IMG/VR virus record: IMGVR_UViG_2778261570_000020
Direction: 5' to 3' (one strand)
Source: a virus
Taxonomy: Duplodnaviria; Heunggongvirae; Uroviricota; Caudoviricetes
Length of the DNA stretch: 6,008 bases
The stretch's first letter is position 1; each line of letters opens with the position of its first letter. The notes beneath the pieces are model-generated. The model saw nothing but the letters and a program-made list of their open reading frames with translations. It ran no database searches and was not told the origin of the DNA. Below, in pieces: positions 1 through 5,779 of the stretch. Both the position numbers and the translations under genes were made by a program.

Positions 1-1
1 C

Positions 2-127
2 TGGCCTCTGTACGAGAAAATCGCGCAGGCATTTAAGCAGGCTGCCGCAGAGCTGAATACCCCCATCGAATGGGGCGGTGAGTGGCGGTCGTTAAAGGAC
101 GGGCCTCACTTTCAGCTGAAACGATAA
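2..127 (+). CDS. 3' end of a CDS truncated by the window start; possible peptidase M15-type phage endolysin (L-alanyl-D-glutamate peptidase-like)
   Basis: Open frame from position 2 to TAA at 125-127, translating ...WPLYEKIAQAFKQAAAELNTPIEWGGEWRSLKDGPHFQLKR. The C-terminal W-x-D-G-x-H-[FV]-[QE]-L pattern resembles the C-terminus of M15-family phage endolysins (e.g. the T5 endolysin ends ...YDGGHVELV). Position upstream of small membrane ORFs and a cos/terminase block fits a lysis gene. Only 41 residues are visible. Confidence 0.4.
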   Translation, partial: WPLYEKIAQAFKQAAAELNTPIEWGGEWRSLKDGPHFQLKR

Positions 128-134
128 ATAAGGC

Positions 135-172
135 AAAGCCCCGGTTGTTGGAGCAATCGGGGCTTTGTGTTT
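135..172 (+). terminator. Hairpin/terminator-like structure downstream of the first CDS
   Basis: AAAGCCCCG (135-143) is the exact reverse complement of CGGGGCTTT (158-166); the stem can extend inward to about 13 bp with one G-U, followed by GTGTTTA. The T-tract is interrupted, so terminator efficiency is uncertain. Confidence 0.45.
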
Positions 173-208
173 ATGGATTCATTTTGTGAATGCGCATGGG
201 GATCATTC

Positions 209-406
209 ATGCCAGTAAAGCCTAACACGACGAAAGATAAATTTGGAGATGATCTGATGATAAAAGCAGAAACCACCCCGCAGGGGGCTGATGATGCCGC
301 AAAAATCATCGCGGTATGCCGGGGCATCAGACACATACTAACGCCAGTTGCATGGATTATTTGTACCGCACTGGTTGCATACACAACAATTTATTTAAAC
401 AGATGA
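209..406 (+). CDS. Hypothetical small protein (65 aa) with a C-terminal hydrophobic segment
   Basis: ATG at 209 preceded by GGGGA; translation MPVKPNTTKDKFGDD...LTPVAWIICTALVAYTTIYLNR ends in a likely transmembrane helix. Its stop overlaps the next start in an ATGA unit (ATG 403-405 / TGA 404-406), suggesting translational coupling. No recognisable family. Confidence 0.3.
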   Translation: MPVKPNTTKDKFGDDLMIKAETTPQGADDAAKIIAVCRGIRHILTPVAWIICTALVAYTTIYLNR

Positions 407-519
407 GTGCTGATTTTATTCGGGCGGTGGCTTTTGCCATTAAGTGGGTGGCGGTTGGCATTGCCGTGTCTCCGATACTGTATGGGCTGGCAAAATTGAT
501 TGTTGCTCTGAAATCGTGA
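403..519 (+). CDS. Hypothetical 38-aa hydrophobic single-pass membrane peptide
   Basis: MSADFIRAVAFAIKWVAVGIAVSPILYGLAKLIVALKS is almost entirely one predicted TM helix. Start overlaps the upstream stop (ATGA) and its own stop TGA 517-519 overlaps a GTG at 516-518 in the next frame. No strong RBS, so confidence is low. Confidence 0.25.
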   Translation: MSADFIRAVAFAIKWVAVGIAVSPILYGLAKLIVALKS

Positions 520-527
520 GTGGTGAT

Positions 528-710
528 ATGACGCGAAAACACTGGACACACAGAATGCCGCGAACGGCGGCGAAATGGGCACTGGTAGCGATACTGGTGC
601 CTTTTTTCCTGGTGGGATGCGTCAGTCTGGATAAGGCGCGCCAGCTTTTCGATACGGCTTCTCAGGTCTGCGAAATTGTCGACGGTGTTCGACAGTGTCT
701 GCAGAGCTGA
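528..710 (+). CDS. Putative small lipoprotein (about 60 aa precursor; alternative GTG start at 516)
   Basis: Translation MTRKHWTHRMPRTAAKWALVAILVPFFLVGCVSLDKARQLFDTASQVCEIVDGVRQCLQS: basic n-region, hydrophobic h-region and an L-V-G-C lipobox, leaving a roughly 30-residue mature peptide with three Cys. Third member of the coupled trio downstream of the endolysin-like gene. Confidence 0.4.
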   Translation: MTRKHWTHRMPRTAAKWALVAILVPFFLVGCVSLDKARQLFDTASQVCEIVDGVRQCLQS

Positions 711-722
711 ACGCCCGTAAGA

Positions 723-780
723 GCAGAATATTTCGCTGAAAAATGAAGGGTGCGCCAGCGTCCGGAAAGCATGAAATTCT
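723..780. repeat. Copy 1 of a ~58-bp imperfect direct repeat (perfect 20-bp core CGTCCGGAAAGCATGAAATT at 759-778)
   Basis: The 20-mer at 759-778 recurs exactly at 5876-5895. Flanking sequence is also similar: GCTGAAAAATGA (735-746) versus GCTAAAAAATGA (5852-5863), and GCCAG before the core with a 1-nt indel. Confidence 0.7.
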
Positions 781-883
781 GCTGTGTGTGTCAATTTGTC
801 TTATACATTCTGAATTTTGCCTAATCAGGATGAACTTTGAACAACAGCCCGGGCGGCAAGGGGCATTTTTATCCGGAGGGGAT

Positions 884-1108
884 ATGAAGAGATTACTGGT
901 AACCGTAAAGCCCTTTAACGGAACGATTCCATTCAGGGTTTTGCAGCGTGGACGTGTTCTGGTTAAGGATATCTTCAGTGGTAAATGCACGGAGTGTTAT
1001 TCCCGGACATATGAAGTGGATGCCACGGATGAAGAAATTTCTGTTGAATGTGATCTGAACGCAAATATGGTGGGGATTGTAACGGCCACGTTGTTGCCTG
1101 TTTCATGA
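884..1108 (+). CDS. Hypothetical protein (74 aa)
   Basis: ATG at 884 preceded by the Shine-Dalgarno-like GGAGGGG with correct spacing; the 12-mer GGAGGGGATATG is identical to the initiation region of the small terminase gene at 2026-2039. Translation MKRLLVTVKPFNGTIPFRVLQRGRVLVKDIFSGKCTECYSRTYEVDATDEEISVECDLNANMVGIVTATLLPVS. The ORF track extends this frame upstream to 743, but that N-terminal extension lacks an RBS and has odd composition. Confidence 0.5.
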   Translation: MKRLLVTVKPFNGTIPFRVLQRGRVLVKDIFSGKCTECYSRTYEVDATDEEISVECDLNANMVGIVTATLLPVS

Positions 1109-1148
1109 ATGACATAGAATGTCTCTGGGTACCCAAAAGGAGAACACT

Positions 1149-1364
1149 ATGTTTGTAGAAAATAACCTGAAGGCTGATCCTGATAATCAGGGATGGGTTC
1201 TTGGTTGGGCTGTAGTACGTGACAAACCCTGGCATCTGGTCGGCATTTATGCAACGGAGGATGGCGCAAAGTCTAAACGCTCTGAATTGAATGGGGAGTA
1301 TGAAGTTCATTATGGTTCCCATCGTTTAGGTAGTGATGATTTTATGTCTGTCGGACTTAGCTAA
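1149..1364 (+). CDS. Hypothetical protein (71 aa)
   Basis: ATG at 1149 preceded by AAGGAG with good spacing; translation MFVENNLKADPDNQGWVLGWAVVRDKPWHLVGIYATEDGAKSKRSELNGEYEVHYGSHRLGSDDFMSVGLS. Followed by a strong intrinsic terminator. Confidence 0.55.
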   Translation: MFVENNLKADPDNQGWVLGWAVVRDKPWHLVGIYATEDGAKSKRSELNGEYEVHYGSHRLGSDDFMSVGLS

Positions 1365-2036: not shown

Positions 2037-2528
2037 ATGGATCGTGAGTTGAAAAATCTGATGCTGAACATTAACCAACTGGCGGCAATAGCAGGTATAT
2101 GTCGTCAGACTGCGGCGGCAAGACTGCAAAACATCCAGCCCGCCGGAGGACATGACAAGTTAAAGCTCTACCGGGTGGCAGATATTGTGTCGGCATTTCT
2201 GGCATTACCACCGCCGGTTGCAGAAGGCGAAATGGACGCGCATGAGCGCAAAGCCTGGTATCAGTCTGAACGTGAGCGTCTTAAGTTCGAACAGGAAACG
2301 GCACAACTCATTCCGGCCAGTGATGTCAGACGGGAGTTTGCCATCTGGGCAAAAGCGGTCGTGCAGGTGCTGGAGACATTACCGGATATTCTTGAACGTG
2401 ACTGCGGTCTGCAGCCTGCCGCTGTGAGCCGTGTTCAGTCCATTATTGATGATCTGCGCGATCAGATAGCCCTGCGGGTGACTGAAGCAGGTGCGGATGA
2501 TGAGGAGGAATTACAGCAGGAGGAGTAA
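2037..2528 (+). CDS. Terminase small subunit, Nu1-like (164 aa)
   Basis: ATG at 2037 with a strong AGGAGGGG RBS. The N-terminus MDRELKNLMLNINQLAAIAGICRQTAAARL...KLYRVADIVSAF parallels the lambda Nu1 helix-turn-helix region (KKQLADIFGASIRTIQNW...VLYDSAAVIKWY), with an acidic C-terminus. Stop TAA 2526-2528 overlaps the ATG of the large-subunit gene (TAATG). The longer track ORF from 1950 would run through the cos-like region and is not preferred. Confidence 0.75.
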   Translation: MDRELKNLMLNINQLAAIAGICRQTAAARLQNIQPAGGHDKLKLYRVADIVSAFLALPPPVAEGEMDAHERKAWYQSERERLKFEQETAQLIPASDVRREFAIWAKAVVQVLETLPDILERDCGLQPAAVSRVQSIIDDLRDQIALRVTEAGADDEEELQQEE

Positions 2529-3523
2529 TGCTGAATCAGGAAACCGCAAAGGCAGCACGAACCGATTCAGGTTATATCCTTCGCGCACCGAGACGAATGC
2601 GGGTTGCTGATGCCGTTGCTCAGTATATGCGGGTGCCTATGGGGGCAGGGAACTCAGTCCCGTGGGATCCGCTGGTGGCACCGTATGTTATTGAGCCTAT
2701 GAACTGCCTGGCCTCGCGTGAATACGACGCAGTGATATTTGTTGGCCCGGCACGAACCGGCAAGACTATCGGCCTGATTGACGGCTGGGTGATTTACAAC
2801 GTGATTTGCGATCCTGCTGATATGCTGATCATTCAGATGACGGAGGAAAAAGCCCGCGAACACTCCAAAAAACGACTCGCCAGAACGTTTCGCGTCAGCC
2901 CGGAAGTGGTCAGTCGCCTGAGTCCGAACAAAAATGACAACAACGTTTATGACAGAACATTCCTTGCCGGCAATTACCTGAAAATCGGCTGGCCGTCAGT
3001 CAATATCATGTCCTCATCAGATTATAAATGTGTGGCGCTGACGGATTATGACCGTTTTCCGGAAGATATTGATGGTGAGGGGGATGCCTTCTCTCTTGCT
3101 TCAAAACGAACCACCACATTTATGTCCAGCGGTATGACGCTGGTGGAAAGTTCACCCGGCAGGGATGTGAAAGATGTGAAATGGCGACGGACTTCACCGC
3201 ATGAGGCTCCGCCAACCACGGGGATCCTGTCACTCTATAACCGTGGCGATCGTCGTCGCTGGTACTGGCCCTGCCCACACTGTGGTGAGTATTTTCAGCC
3301 CTGTGGCGATGTGGTTGCTGGTTTTCGTGATATTGCCGATCCCGTGCTGGCAAGTGAGGCAGCTTATATTCAGTGCCCTTCCTGTTCCGGGCGAATTATG
3401 CCTGACCAGAAACGCGAGCTGAACGGACGTGGGGTCTGGTTGCGGGATGGTGAATCCATCAATGCAGACGGCAGTCGTTATGGTGAGCCCCGGCGCTCAC
3501 GTATTGCGTCATTCTGGATGTAG
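2528..3523 (+). CDS. Terminase large subunit, GpA-like, N-terminal half only (331 aa; C-terminally truncated, likely remnant/pseudogene)
   Basis: Walker A-type motif VGPARTGKT and cysteine motifs WPCPHCGEYFQPCGD and CPSCSG that parallel lambda gpA (ACPHCGEEQYLKFGD, then GIWTRDG versus GVWLRDG here). Lambda gpA is about 640 aa; this frame stops at ...RIASFWM where gpA continues (...VTFHIWTAYSPF...), and no continuation is visible in any frame downstream. Confidence 0.8.
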   Translation: MLNQETAKAARTDSGYILRAPRRMRVADAVAQYMRVPMGAGNSVPWDPLVAPYVIEPMNCLASREYDAVIFVGPARTGKTIGLIDGWVIYNVICDPADMLIIQMTEEKAREHSKKRLARTFRVSPEVVSRLSPNKNDNNVYDRTFLAGNYLKIGWPSVNIMSSSDYKCVALTDYDRFPEDIDGEGDAFSLASKRTTTFMSSGMTLVESSPGRDVKDVKWRRTSPHEAPPTTGILSLYNRGDRRRWYWPCPHCGEYFQPCGDVVAGFRDIADPVLASEAAYIQCPSCSGRIMPDQKRELNGRGVWLRDGESINADGSRYGEPRRSRIASFWM

Positions 3524-3609
3524 GGTACATTTCTTACCTGTTTTTATGTTCTGGTGTCGTTTTGTAGTCTTTTCAATGAGTTGTGATTTTTTGTGTTTCC
3601 TCTCTTTAC

Positions 3610-3639
3610 TTGATAATGAGTTAGTTTATCGCTTGTTAT
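3610..3639 (+). promoter_or_regulatory. Possible sigma70-like promoter and direct repeats upstream of the integrase gene
   Basis: TTGATA (3610-3615), 18 bp, TGTTAT (3634-3639) in an AT-rich spacer; TTATCG is directly repeated at 3626-3631 and 3636-3641. Purely motif-based. Confidence 0.2.
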
Positions 3640-3684
3640 CGACTTGAAAGGACTACATGACGGACTAAAAAATGAGGGCGATAG

Positions 3685-4923
3685 ATGCCGGTAAAGCCAT
3701 TAACCGTGACTGAAGTTAAGGGGATGAAACCACGTGAAAAGGACTATGCCGTTTATGATGGGTTCGGTTTATTGCTGAATGTGAGTAAAGCTGGTGGGAA
3801 AGTGTGGCGTTTCCGTTATAGCCATCCGATAACGAAGAAACGGCAGACATACACGATAGGGCGTTTTCCTGAATTCTCACTCGCGGAAGCACGGGAAATA
3901 CGTGATGAACTTCGGCGAATGATTGCACGTGGAGTTGATCCAGTGACAGAGAAGAAAAATCGTAAAATTGAGATGTCACTAAAAAATCTACAAACATTTG
4001 AAGCTGTTGCTAATGCATGGATCGCTTTTAAAAAGGGATCGGAATTGCGGAAACCTACGCTGTATAATATCGAATATGAAGTATACAAATATCTTGTTCC
4101 TTTCTTTGGTAAGTACAGCATAGAGAAAATTACAGCGCCAGTAGCTATTAATGCTCTGGATGCCGTATCCGATAAGAATGCGTTGCAAAAAAAATTAATA
4201 TCAAGATTAAATGAAATTATGAATTACGCTGTAAATTGTGGAGCATTGAAAACGAATCCATTACTTAAGATAAAAACTGCATTCACAGGAAAGAAAAATA
4301 AATCATTAGCTGCACTACCTGTTGAAAGATTGCCTGAATTTCTGAGTTGGTGGGATAGTGTGCCTCATAAGTATCAAATAGCTCACAATGCACTTTTATT
4401 CCAGATATTGACAATGGTCAGGCCAGGTGAGGCGATTAAAGCAGAGTGGTCCGAGATTGATTTTGATTCTGGCTTGTGGATTATCCCTGCGCATAAAATG
4501 AAATGCCATCGTGAACATGTTGTGCCTCTCTCATCACAGGCTATTAGAATCCTAAGAACAATGCAGAAAATAAAAAGAGGGCGTTATATATTTTTTTCCT
4601 CCAGAACAAAAGATGCTCCTATGGGAAAGAATACTATCAATACCCCAATTGCTGCCAGCAAGTTCAAAGGGATTGTAACGTTACACGGTTTTCGTTCGAT
4701 GTGGAGTACGCTTTTAAATGAGGAGGGTTTTAACCCTGATGTTATTGAGGCTGCATTAGCACATAAAAGTGGTGATAAAATAAGAGATATTTATAATAGA
4801 ACTACTTATTTAGAACAACGCAAAATTATGATGCAATGGGTAGGAGATTTTTTTGATGAGGCGAGAAAAGGGGTAATTAATAGATCCGGTGGTAAGAAAG
4901 GTTTGAGAATAGTAAATGGTTGA
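3685..4923 (+). CDS. int: Tyrosine site-specific integrase, P4-type (412 aa)
   Basis: N-terminal arm-binding-type domain (MPVKPLTVTEVKGMKPREKDYAVYDGFGLLLNVSKAGGKVWRFRYSHP..., characteristic of P4-like integrases). Catalytic motifs are present: RPGE box (MVRPGEAIKAEW), HGFRSMWST (H-x-x-R) and the C-terminal tyrosine region AHKSGDKIRDIYNRTTY. RBS GAGGG upstream of ATG 3685. Gene is AT-rich relative to the terminase block. Confidence 0.9.
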   Translation: MPVKPLTVTEVKGMKPREKDYAVYDGFGLLLNVSKAGGKVWRFRYSHPITKKRQTYTIGRFPEFSLAEAREIRDELRRMIARGVDPVTEKKNRKIEMSLKNLQTFEAVANAWIAFKKGSELRKPTLYNIEYEVYKYLVPFFGKYSIEKITAPVAINALDAVSDKNALQKKLISRLNEIMNYAVNCGALKTNPLLKIKTAFTGKKNKSLAALPVERLPEFLSWWDSVPHKYQIAHNALLFQILTMVRPGEAIKAEWSEIDFDSGLWIIPAHKMKCHREHVVPLSSQAIRILRTMQKIKRGRYIFFSSRTKDAPMGKNTINTPIAASKFKGIVTLHGFRSMWSTLLNEEGFNPDVIEAALAHKSGDKIRDIYNRTTYLEQRKIMMQWVGDFFDEARKGVINRSGGKKGLRIVNG

Positions 4924-4935
4924 GGAGTTCAGCAA

Positions 4936-5139
4936 ATGAATACCAATGAAGATATTTTATTTACTAAAGACGTAATGAAAATTTTGCGCTATGGGGCAAT
5001 GAGCGCATTCATCAATTTCTGGAAAGATGAAAATAATGGTTTTCCTCAACCGTTCAGAATTGGGCGGCGGCATACCTGGCACCGTAGAGATGTAGAGGCA
5101 TGGTTAGATAAACAACGAGAACAGGCCAATCCCCACTAA
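4936..5139 (+). CDS. alpA: AlpA-family (excisionase-like) DNA-binding regulator (67 aa)
   Basis: Small protein immediately 3' of the integrase (13-bp gap, RBS GAGGAG). The pattern ...KDVMKILRYGAMSAFINFWKDENNGFPQPFRIGRRHTWHRRDVEAWLDKQ matches the AlpA / prophage CP4-57 regulatory protein architecture (HTH, then a conserved FP-x-P-hydrophobic-x-G motif, then W-x3-[DE]-x2-[EA]-W). Confidence 0.7.
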   Translation: MNTNEDILFTKDVMKILRYGAMSAFINFWKDENNGFPQPFRIGRRHTWHRRDVEAWLDKQREQANPH

Positions 5140-5153
5140 TAATATCTTTCATA

Positions 5154-5178
5154 CCCCGCACGCAATGCGGGGTTTTTT
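5154..5178 (+). terminator. Rho-independent terminator
   Basis: CCCCGCA (5154-5160), loop CGCAA, TGCGGGG (5166-5172), then TTTTTT (5173-5178). Confidence 0.75.
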
Positions 5179-5197
5179 GTATGTGAGGTAAAAAACG

Positions 5198-5779
5198 ATG
5201 AATAAAAATATTGCCGTGACGGGCAAGGGGTACGCTCGTTCAGTAAAAAAATTCTGCGATATTCGTGATCTTGTCGTTCTGCGCTTTGATGGCGTGGATG
5301 TTCGTGTGGTGTATCTGAACGGCGATCCGTGGTTTGTTGCAAAGGATGTTTGTGAAGCTCTGGAAATAAGCAACTCACGCGATGCTCTAAAAGCTCTGGA
5401 TGTGGATGAGAAGAATACCGTCGCTTTAAGCTACGGTATTCGCGGAAATCCAAATCATAGCGTCGTTTCTGAATCTGGTTTTTACAAGCTGATCGCCAGA
5501 AGTCGCAAAGCTGTTACTCCTGGCACGTTCGCCCATCGTTTCAGTAATTGGGTATTCAGAAATGTGATACCGGGTATCAGAAAAACGGGGGCTTATGGTA
5601 TCCCGTGGGGCGCATTGCAGGATTTTTCCCGCCGCAAAGAGCAATACCGGATAAGTGCCAGCGAGAAGGGGAGGGCGCTACAGGCATGTAAGCGCAAAAA
5701 GCGTGAACTGGAGGAAGAAGAAAAAAGGCTGATACGTGAATATCAGCCTGAGTTTTACTTTGGTGAGCGTATTCAGTAA
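5198..5779 (+). CDS. Bro-N domain protein (phage antirepressor-like; 193 aa)
   Basis: RBS TGAGGT 8 nt upstream of ATG 5198. Conserved Bro-N signature blocks: VVLRFDGVDVRVVYLNGDPWFVAKDVCEAL...SRDALKALDVDEK, then SESGFYKLIARSRKA...FAHRFSNWVFRNVIPGIRKTGAYG. C-terminal 50 residues are highly charged (KRKKRELEEEEKRLIRE). Confidence 0.8.
   Translation: MNKNIAVTGKGYARSVKKFCDIRDLVVLRFDGVDVRVVYLNGDPWFVAKDVCEALEISNSRDALKALDVDEKNTVALSYGIRGNPNHSVVSESGFYKLIARSRKAVTPGTFAHRFSNWVFRNVIPGIRKTGAYGIPWGALQDFSRRKEQYRISASEKGRALQACKRKKRELEEEEKRLIREYQPEFYFGERIQ

Follow-up and report, generated by a model that had tools for sequence, protein, structure and literature searches.

The window analysed here is a 6,008-nucleotide (nt) stretch of viral DNA (IMG/VR record IMGVR_UViG_2778261570_000020, Caudoviricetes) and is the late region of a phiP27-like E. 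coli prophage. Downstream of an endolysin gene it carries three small open reading frames (ORFs), ORF1, ORF2 and ORF3, the last of which encodes a prolipoprotein of 60 amino acids (aa), named LPP in this work. LPP is a conserved terminal gene of the lysis cassette, positionally equivalent to the spanin genes Rz/Rz1 and mutually exclusive with them. The most likely explanation of the interval, to which we give as a whole somewhat better than an even chance, is that three independent small membrane-protein genes are assembled as a mosaic in a late lysis operon and do not form a three-gene machine: LPP would be an outer-membrane lysis factor without a partner, and ORF1 and ORF2 would be dispensable inserts.

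The terminal gene of the lysis cassette

Eighty IMG/VR loci encoding LPP were fetched and reference proteins were mapped onto them; counts are given over the 84 loci that have LPP and an upstream endolysin. The order is holin(s), endolysin (M15 or GH108), an insert of 14 to about 1070 nt and LPP in last position, and none of the 84 loci contains Rz. In 27 of them LPP lies 14 nt past the endolysin stop with no gene between (for example L015, E. coli W prophage). Elsewhere the slot is filled by a 57-60-aa peptide of PHROG 1115, with or without a 44-aa peptide of PHROG 4906, or by a Cys-rich 93-aa protein, a KilA-N gene, a minus-strand 90-aa gene (phiP27), or ORF1 followed by the 38-aa ORF2 or by a 28-aa variant. 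ORF1 and ORF2 are absent from most LPP loci. The original prediction had viewed the three genes as a coupled functional trio whose conservation could be checked in related prophages. The individual frames are indeed kept there, but ORF1, the 38-aa ORF2 and LPP occur together in only 3 of the 84 loci (the window, L001 and L060). Their distributions are independent, the lipoprotein being found without ORF1 or ORF2 and ORF1 alone in Salmonella remnants, so that the idea of a trio had to be abandoned.

A divergent LPP subfamily, at 35-62% identity, keeps the lipobox and both further cysteines. Its genes begin anywhere from a 23-nt overlap with the endolysin gene to 6 nt past the endolysin stop. 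Their upstream neighbours are M15, GH108 or a 175-aa enzyme of unassigned type, combined with at least three holin sets. The same arrangement was found in the three species-representative genomes with an LPP copy (Salmonella, Citrobacter braakii, Lelliottia). A pairing of LPP with holA or holB was considered and rejected: co-occurrence was perfect in the first survey, but diverged LPP genes lie behind other holin types. The only constant neighbour of LPP is the endolysin directly upstream, which argues for a generic lysis role and against a specific holin partner.

The second survey comprised 79 further loci chosen only for PHROG 1115. LPP is the terminal gene of the holA-holB cassettes (about 27 loci), and Rz occupies the same position in cassettes with a pinholin and a signal-arrest-release (SAR) endolysin (about 51 loci). 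In about two loci (L097 type), a lambda holin, a GH24 endolysin and an intact overlapped pair of inner- and outer-membrane spanins (i-spanin and o-spanin) are found with a deletion-fused LPP remnant, located beside the pair at positions 3238-3513 of L097. No intact LPP was found together with Rz in these PHROG 1115-chosen loci. Another decayed copy, with three in-frame stops, is present in GER2 (L008, 3980-4180), which carries S, R and Rz.

Some phage lipoproteins, such as Bor, Cor and Llp, are known cargo or exclusion factors. By this precedent all three genes of the interval could be cargo (morons) that rides a recombination hot-spot and serves the lysogen or blocks rival phages, through exclusion, receptor masking, serum resistance or membrane toxicity. 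The slot between the endolysin and terminase genes does accept foreign material such as LT-II toxin genes, KilA-N and the Cys-rich 93-aa protein; in Rac-SA53 (L091, 5163-6938) and SerU-LTIIb (L092, 4397-6368), holA-holB-GH108 is directly followed by the LT-II toxin genes eltIIA/B, and these cassettes have neither LPP nor Rz. Furthermore, ORF1 and ORF2 are patchily and independently distributed, ORF1 persists alone in Salmonella prophage remnants, and it comes with its own upstream hairpin. However, LPP has no room for a promoter of its own, since it lies on the same strand as the endolysin gene, from a 23-nt overlap to 14 nt past its stop, and a promoter scan of window 1-1200 found no plus-strand sigma-70 site. 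LPP stays next to an endolysin whichever of the three endolysin types and of at least three holin sets the cassette has, a constancy unexpected for cargo, and LPP is decayed where Rz/Rz1 are present. The lack of promoter room and an adjacency that survives module shuffling weaken the cargo reading, the main rival explanation for LPP, and we regard cargo as a rather unlikely explanation of the three genes. A moron or superinfection-exclusion function, mentioned in the original prediction, is less likely for LPP than for ORF1 and ORF2.

LPP and the search for an inner-membrane partner

The conserved start of LPP is the ATG at 528: M-x-RKHWTHR-x-PR is kept across the family and PHROG 7528 aligns with residues 1-59 of 60. 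Two other starts, GTG 516 and the ATG 555 chosen by PGAP, are both ruled out by this conserved N-terminus, and the 51-aa PGAP models are too short. LPP thus begins 8 nt past the ORF2 stop without overlap, and the GTGA preceding it is probably incidental. Translational coupling had been proposed from an ATGA at 403-406 and a GTGA at 516-519. Both can be read in the sequence, and the ORF1-ORF2 ATGA junction stands, being kept wherever ORF1 occurs, but the second falls with the start of ORF3 at ATG 528. In phiP27 the LPP gene corresponds to 20679-20861, and the annotated L32 coding sequence (20630-20785) is in the wrong frame.

Bases 1-1200 of the window are 99.8% identical to E. coli E9, for which RefSeq gives in order a 'putative holin' (Pfam Phage_holin_8), a Phage_holin_3_7 holin, an M15 metallopeptidase endolysin and three hypothetical proteins, placed by PGAP at the same positions as ORF1, ORF2 and ORF3. 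The location within a lysis cassette suggested earlier is thereby confirmed, with Phage_holin_8, Phage_holin_3_7 and Peptidase_M15_4 preceding the interval. RefSeq annotation and substitution patterns back each of the three frames, which are all genuine. Synonymous and non-synonymous changes numbered 53/68 for LPP in the proposed frame versus 25-46/74-95 in the other five, and 35/28 versus 7-31/32-56 for the ORF1 core. A closer set of ORF1 alleles gave 13/2 in frame versus 2/13 and 1/14 in the other plus frames. For the ORF2 core, we obtained 23/17 in frame, 9/29 and 5/32 in the other plus frames, and 5-15/22-33 in the other five overall. The proposed frame of each ORF has the highest synonymous share of the six, so the interval is not the by-product of a longer gene, in agreement with the original prediction. 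Longer ORFs at 316-519 and 444-710 on the plus strand, and at 357-794 and 112-384 on the minus strand, receive no support from the substitution patterns.

Homologues of LPP form 138 clusters, all from Enterobacteriaceae and all annotated as hypothetical. A profile search of 1.84 billion representative proteins returned 24 clusters at 50% identity and linked LPP to no named family. LPP is carried by 312 of 5426 complete E. coli genomes (about 6%), and its cassettes include those of the Stx2e phage P27 and E. coli W. Pfam, NCBIfam and PADLOC yielded no match for ORF1-ORF3 or their relatives (known anti-phage defence models of PADLOC at E <= 1), and the PHROG matches are to families of unknown function only. 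None of the three is therefore a canonical Rz/Rz1 gene, as had been anticipated, and we found no paper naming these accessions or PHROG numbers.

Hydropathy (Kyte-Doolittle) analysis bore out the features first read from the sequence: a C-terminal transmembrane (TM) segment in ORF1, a hydrophobic ORF2, and a lipobox with a 30-residue mature part in ORF3. LVG|C is invariant in the LPP family, as are C31, C48 and C57. The residue at +2 is V, A, S, T or G and never Asp. According to the Lol sorting rule, a lipoprotein without Asp at +2 goes to the outer membrane, and LPP is predicted to be located there. The mature peptide, CVSLDKARQLFDTASQVCEIVDGVRQCLQS, is slightly acidic (net charge -1) and amphipathic, with a hydrophobic moment of 1.47 versus 0.67 in shuffled sequences (p = 0.02) and a heptad-like stripe formed by L4, A7, F11, A14, C18, V21 and L28. 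Its two further cysteines are spaced x8, or x9 in the divergent subfamily. Such a pair cannot bond within a continuous helix, which makes intermolecular LPP disulfides plausible. An intramolecular disulfide hairpin was set aside, because the divergent subfamily lacks the turn Gly and has a Cys spacing of x9 instead of x8. In the signal peptide, the 16-residue basic n-region is under constraint no weaker than that on the mature part (synonymous/non-synonymous changes of 15/15 versus 26/44).

An intrinsic-terminator-like hairpin is embedded in the LPP gene (Table 1), with a predicted energy of -18.1 kcal/mol (z = -4.2). It formed in 13 of 13 genes folded singly, and the same sequence is found again throughout the 197 LPP genes collected, the 35-62% identical subfamily included. 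Pairing survives seven one-sided changes in the stem, and one pair is lost in each of three single sequences; compensatory double changes are absent, and the covariation test was not significant. By eye, third-codon positions are near invariant inside the stem and variable outside. The hairpin could be an internal terminator or attenuator passed only by antiterminated polymerase, and it may account for the invariant residues of the h-region.

Downstream of the LPP stop, DNA containing CGCTGAAAAATGAAGG is conserved across very different loci (window 735-760; L015, 6208-6240; L002, 4828-4860). The ORF opened by this region (MKG/D.PASGKHEIL…) continues in a reading frame that is inconsistent between loci, and the region may serve regulation or recombination instead of encoding a protein.

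Table 1. Features of the endolysin-LPP interval (positions in the window).
Feature	Position	Strand	Description
M15 endolysin 3' end (L-alanyl-D-glutamate peptidase type)	2..126	+	Peptidase_M15_4, E = 8e-7 on 41-aa fragment
Terminator-like hairpin	133..168	+	perfect 16-bp stem, then GUUUAU; after endolysin stop
ORF1	209..406	+	65 aa; hydrophilic/amphipathic conserved N-terminal part, one C-terminal TM segment; accessory gene
ORF2	403..519	+	38-aa hydrophobic peptide; ATGA overlap with ORF1 stop
ORF3 (LPP)	528..710	+	60-aa prolipoprotein; PHROG 7528, E = 1.9e-37, full length
LPP signal peptide	528-617	+	unusually long conserved basic n-region MTRKHWTHRMPRTAAKW, then h-region
Intrinsic-terminator-like hairpin	577..608	+	10-11 bp stem, loop GCGA, T6 run; within LPP h-region codons (terminator scan)
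LPP lipobox LVGC	609-620	+	read from the sequence
LPP mature peptide	618-707	+	30-aa amphipathic helical peptide; Cys codons 618-620 (predicted to be lipidated), 669-671, 696-698

Rz1 has a conserved periplasmic Cys, and LPP, which occupies the spanin slot, shares this trait. Its copy in phiP27 was listed by Kongari et al. (2018; PMC6139136) as the o-spanin (20706-20861) of a 'separated' two-component system, with an i-spanin at 20348-20542. The combined periplasmic length of this pair, 32 + 30 = 62 residues, is the shortest in their dataset (PMC6139136). In such a system LPP would be joined by ORF1, ORF2 or the 64-aa phiP27 ORF as i-spanin, the pair bridging and fusing both membranes. However, the catalogued i-spanin (NC_003356, 20348-20542; L002, 4282-4476) is a TTG-start ORF antisense to the 90-aa minus-strand ORF. 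The latter is full-length in one diverged relative (L033, 3042-3317; 46% identity, E = 3e-19), in which the plus frame is broken with 36 codons left. Since the minus-strand ORF is retained there and the plus frame is not, the phiP27 i-spanin call is most likely spurious. In addition, 27 of the 84 loci have no gene between endolysin and LPP, and ORF1, ORF2, PHROG 4906 and the phiP27 ORF are interchangeable or absent. ORF1 is predicted to have its soluble part in the cytoplasm, ORF2 lacks one, and the ORF2 family also occurs upstream of genuine Rz/Rz1. A two-component spanin is thus a very unlikely explanation of the interval.

We screened the loci by hydropathy rules for ORFs with an N-terminal TM segment and a tail of 35-40 residues or more. 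As controls, Rz and the L097 spanin pair were recovered, and the SAR endolysin was flagged too. The screen found no i-spanin-like ORF in the minimal cassettes and none that recurs near LPP in the 80 loci; an N-terminal TM screen of the whole phiP27 genome found no plausible i-spanin either. The only annotated, non-secreted phiP27 gene flagged by that screen was L22 (NC_003356, 14266-15495). It encodes a 409-aa 'GIY-YIG nuclease family' protein with a predicted N-terminal TM segment, an unusual pairing.

LPP is the constant fourth gene of the holin(s)-endolysin-LPP cassette, where other lambdoid phages have Rz/Rz1. In the mechanism that we propose, it would be transcribed with the late genes and exported, with lipid modification at Cys31 as suggested by the lipobox. 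The +2 residue, which is not Asp, would direct it to the inner leaflet of the outer membrane. After destruction of the wall by the endolysin, its 29-residue amphipathic helix and two conserved cysteines would then act in the final lysis step, breaching the outer membrane. As no cognate inner-membrane spanin is encoded, LPP is proposed to act without a phage-encoded periplasm-spanning partner. LPP might even be a stand-alone outer-membrane disruptor, and so a third kind of terminal lysis factor alongside the spanins and cationic disruptin, with possibly hairpin-gated expression; this is a tentative suggestion, in which a full-length LPP message may come only from antiterminated late transcription. 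ORF1 and ORF2 would be small inner-membrane proteins brought by recombination into a hot-spot between the endolysin and the spanin slot, where they would most likely modulate the inner membrane or lysis timing, or serve a moron-type function.

Several points weigh against this explanation of the interval. The LPP family is tiny and restricted to Enterobacteriaceae. AlphaFold2 returned a single helix at low confidence (predicted local distance difference test, pLDDT, of 64). The 30-residue mature part is too short to reach the inner membrane and, with its net charge of -1, LPP resembles neither a spanin complex nor a cationic disruptin. Position alone is no proof of a lysis role, since LT-II toxin cargo fills the same slot. 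A simple hydropathy screen would miss a partner of odd topology or encoded far away. Finally, the hairpin within the LPP gene could limit its expression, and ORF2 may be poorly translated, a Shine-Dalgarno sequence being absent.

ORF1, ORF2 and the rest of the window

The sole hydrophobic segment of ORF1 was located at residues 43-61 by Kyte-Doolittle analysis; the TM segment is placed at residues about 43-63 (window 335-397) and is flanked by three Lys or Arg residues on its N-terminal side versus one on its C-terminal side. By the positive-inside rule, ORF1 is predicted to be N-in and tail-anchored, with a cytoplasmic conserved N-terminal part. AlphaFold2 predicts a helix over residues 24-64, with a pLDDT of 82-90 over residues 31-60. 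Homologues form 35 clusters from E. coli and Salmonella, at 63-100% identity, and share the invariant residues KAETT..G..R..H.LT..AW within the conserved stretch KAETTPQGADxAAKIIAxCRGIRHxLTPxAW. Of 5426 complete E. coli genomes, 69 carry the gene; in some relatives Met17 (window 257) serves as the start. Two copies are disrupted in the G-run at 283-287, where GGGGG has become GGGGGG or GAGGGG through a +1 insertion (L081, about 5790; L060, about 2050). In both, the frame stops after 26 codons and the TM tail is left without a start codon. Frameshifted copies thus make up two of the four ORF1 loci compared directly and two of eight ORF1-bearing loci overall. Codons past the insertion keep the synonymous pattern of the ORF1 frame, which suggests that the inactivation is recent. 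ORF1 is therefore a real gene that can be lost. In decayed Salmonella prophages it is found solitary behind a NanS-like esterase gene.

The terminator-like hairpin that follows the endolysin stop lies within a 96-nt stretch (120-215) of -41.3 kcal/mol (z = -5.25 versus shuffled sequences); Rfam gave no match in the window. This hairpin moves with ORF1, since it also precedes ORF1 in L024, where the upstream gene is different, and it seems to mark the left edge of a mobile ORF1 cassette.

ORF2, hydrophobic from residue 4 to 36 (Kyte-Doolittle), aligns only with the C-terminal membrane segment of PHROG 1115 proteins, which are 57-60 aa long (E = 1.3e-18, residues 3-38 on profile positions 32-67 of 67), and has MSADFI in place of their N-terminal ~25 residues. 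Full-length PHROG 1115 relatives are found in L004, L005 and L006. Purifying selection acts on the frames of both ORF1 and ORF2; in the ORF2 core it is mild, with conservative changes (I/V/L/M). Its N-terminus MSADFIR and the ATGA overlap are conserved and are attached to two alternative C-terminal variants, the 28-aa form following ORF1 in L024, L081 and L097. ORF2 therefore seems to be a recombinant of the ORF1 cassette with resident PHROG 1115 alleles. No Shine-Dalgarno sequence was found upstream of ATG 403, and translation of ORF2 would hinge on coupling to ORF1. The PHROG 1115 family is limited to E. coli and Salmonella and is hypothetical in all annotations. Its presence with both lysis systems indicates that it is matched to no particular holin, endolysin or spanin.

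Considered apart from LPP, ORF1 and ORF2 could be holin-level regulators (antiholin-, releasin- or Lcc6-like) tuning the timing of hole formation, a role compatible with LPP as a partnerless lysis factor. Both are predicted to be small single-pass inner-membrane proteins within a lysis cassette. Lcc6 of LambdaSo, a 65-aa TM protein required at the holin step, provides a precedent (bioRxiv 10.1101/2024.01.23.576932), and a 50-aa positional analogue of ORF1 in L006, which is no sequence homologue and lies upstream of an ORF2-family gene, gives a faint PHROG holin match (E = 0.047). However, the ORF2 family accompanies pinholin/SAR-endolysin systems as well as large-hole holin/soluble-endolysin systems and is matched to no holin, while ORF1 is absent or frameshifted in many cassettes and has no Pfam or PHROG lysis match. 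Lcc6 has the opposite topology (N-terminal TM) and no sequence relationship to ORF1. Neither ORF1 nor ORF2 shows Pfam or NCBIfam homology to holins or antiholins, and we consider such regulation unlikely. The best-supported description of ORF1 and ORF2 is that of putatively dispensable inner-membrane peptides, indifferent to the lysis system.

The named phages nearest to the window are phiP27 (Stx2e phage), phiSTEC1575-Stx2k and 'Actinobacillus' phage pPE4. The lysis region of the last (L003; PP818812, 'Actinobacillus phage vB_Apl-pPE4') is 92-100% identical to E. coli prophage DNA, with a holin protein at 100%, so that the stated host looks doubtful, or the phage looks to be of enterobacterial origin. 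Further downstream in the window, the terminase large-subunit ORF (2528-3523) ends after 331 aa and keeps the GpA ATPase domain alone. Next come a tyrosine integrase (Arm-DNA-bind_3 + Phage_integrase) and then a Bro-N protein (3685-4923 and 5198-5779). A second mobile element apparently borders or splits this prophage, and the prophage may be defective as a result. At least 12 complete E. coli genomes match most of the region 2528-5779 at 93-96% identity and have the same genes annotated there.

Comparison with known lysis systems

The phiP27-type cassette had counted as solved, and the present comparison strips it of its i-spanin. A recognisable spanin is missing from about 13% of phages that infect Gram-negative hosts, which has raised the question of how they breach the outer membrane (PMC6139136). 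If LPP were sufficient for the outer-membrane step, it would represent a new minimal mechanism; if not, phiP27-type phages join the spanin-less phages. LPP occurs in E. coli, where complementation of lambda Rz/Rz1 is a routine test. It is also found in prophages that encode Stx2e, Stx2k and related toxins and rely on this lysis cassette to release them. Three annotations are corrected here: the frame of phiP27 L32, the start of the 51-aa PGAP model, and the catalogued i-spanin, which is probably spurious.

Lcc6, Mu releasin gp25 and antiholins are, like ORF1 and ORF2, single-pass inner-membrane proteins in or near lysis genes, and Lcc6 is also 65 aa long. However, its TM segment is N-terminal whereas that of ORF1 is C-terminal, and there is no homology between them. 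Lcc6 is essential for lysis (bioRxiv 10.1101/2024.01.23.576932), in contrast to ORF1 and ORF2, which are dispensable in nature.

Disruptin gp28 is soluble and not known to carry a lipid anchor. Like LPP in its proposed role, it would substitute for spanins, as a single small amphipathic peptide that would disrupt the outer membrane in a spanin-less phage. It was described in phage phiKT as a cationic antimicrobial peptide (bioRxiv 10.1101/515445). LPP differs by its predicted lipid anchor and its net charge of -1, far from strongly cationic. The u-spanins (T1 gp11 type) share with LPP a single gene in the spanin slot and an N-terminal lipoprotein signal. They need a C-terminal TM domain as inner-membrane anchor, whereas LPP ends hydrophilic (...CLQS), with no hydrophobic segment after residue 37 and its signal peptide as the sole one.

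Colicin lysis proteins, or bacteriocin release proteins, are mature lipoproteins of 28-33 aa that permeabilise the envelope partly via phospholipase A. LPP resembles them in its very short mature lipopeptide and would likewise act without a periplasm-spanning partner. Its signal peptide is unusually conserved, reminiscent of the stable signal peptides that are functional in release proteins. LPP differs from them in being helical with three Cys instead of Gly/Ser/Pro-rich, and in belonging to a phage cassette, not a colicin operon; Pfam (E <= 1) and NCBIfam did not place it in their family. Colicin lysis proteins are the nearest functional analogy for the action proposed for LPP, with no homology.

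Like the o-spanins (lambda Rz1; the 'PhiP27' singleton family of PMC6139136), LPP is a small lipoprotein, predicted to be located in the outer membrane, that ends the lysis cassette. It has the lipobox Cys without Asp at +2 and, in all loci examined, a place downstream of the endolysin. It differs from them in lacking a cognate i-spanin, whether embedded, overlapping or adjacent, and its gene never lies within the gene of an i-spanin or overlaps with it. The mature part is helical, not proline-rich, and with only 30 residues and no partner does not provide a periplasmic span; Pfam and NCBIfam gave no spanin match. LPP is not new as a protein, its phiP27 copy being already catalogued as a putative o-spanin (PMC6139136). 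What is new is that the catalogued partner fails to hold up and that LPP is a partnerless occupant of the spanin slot.

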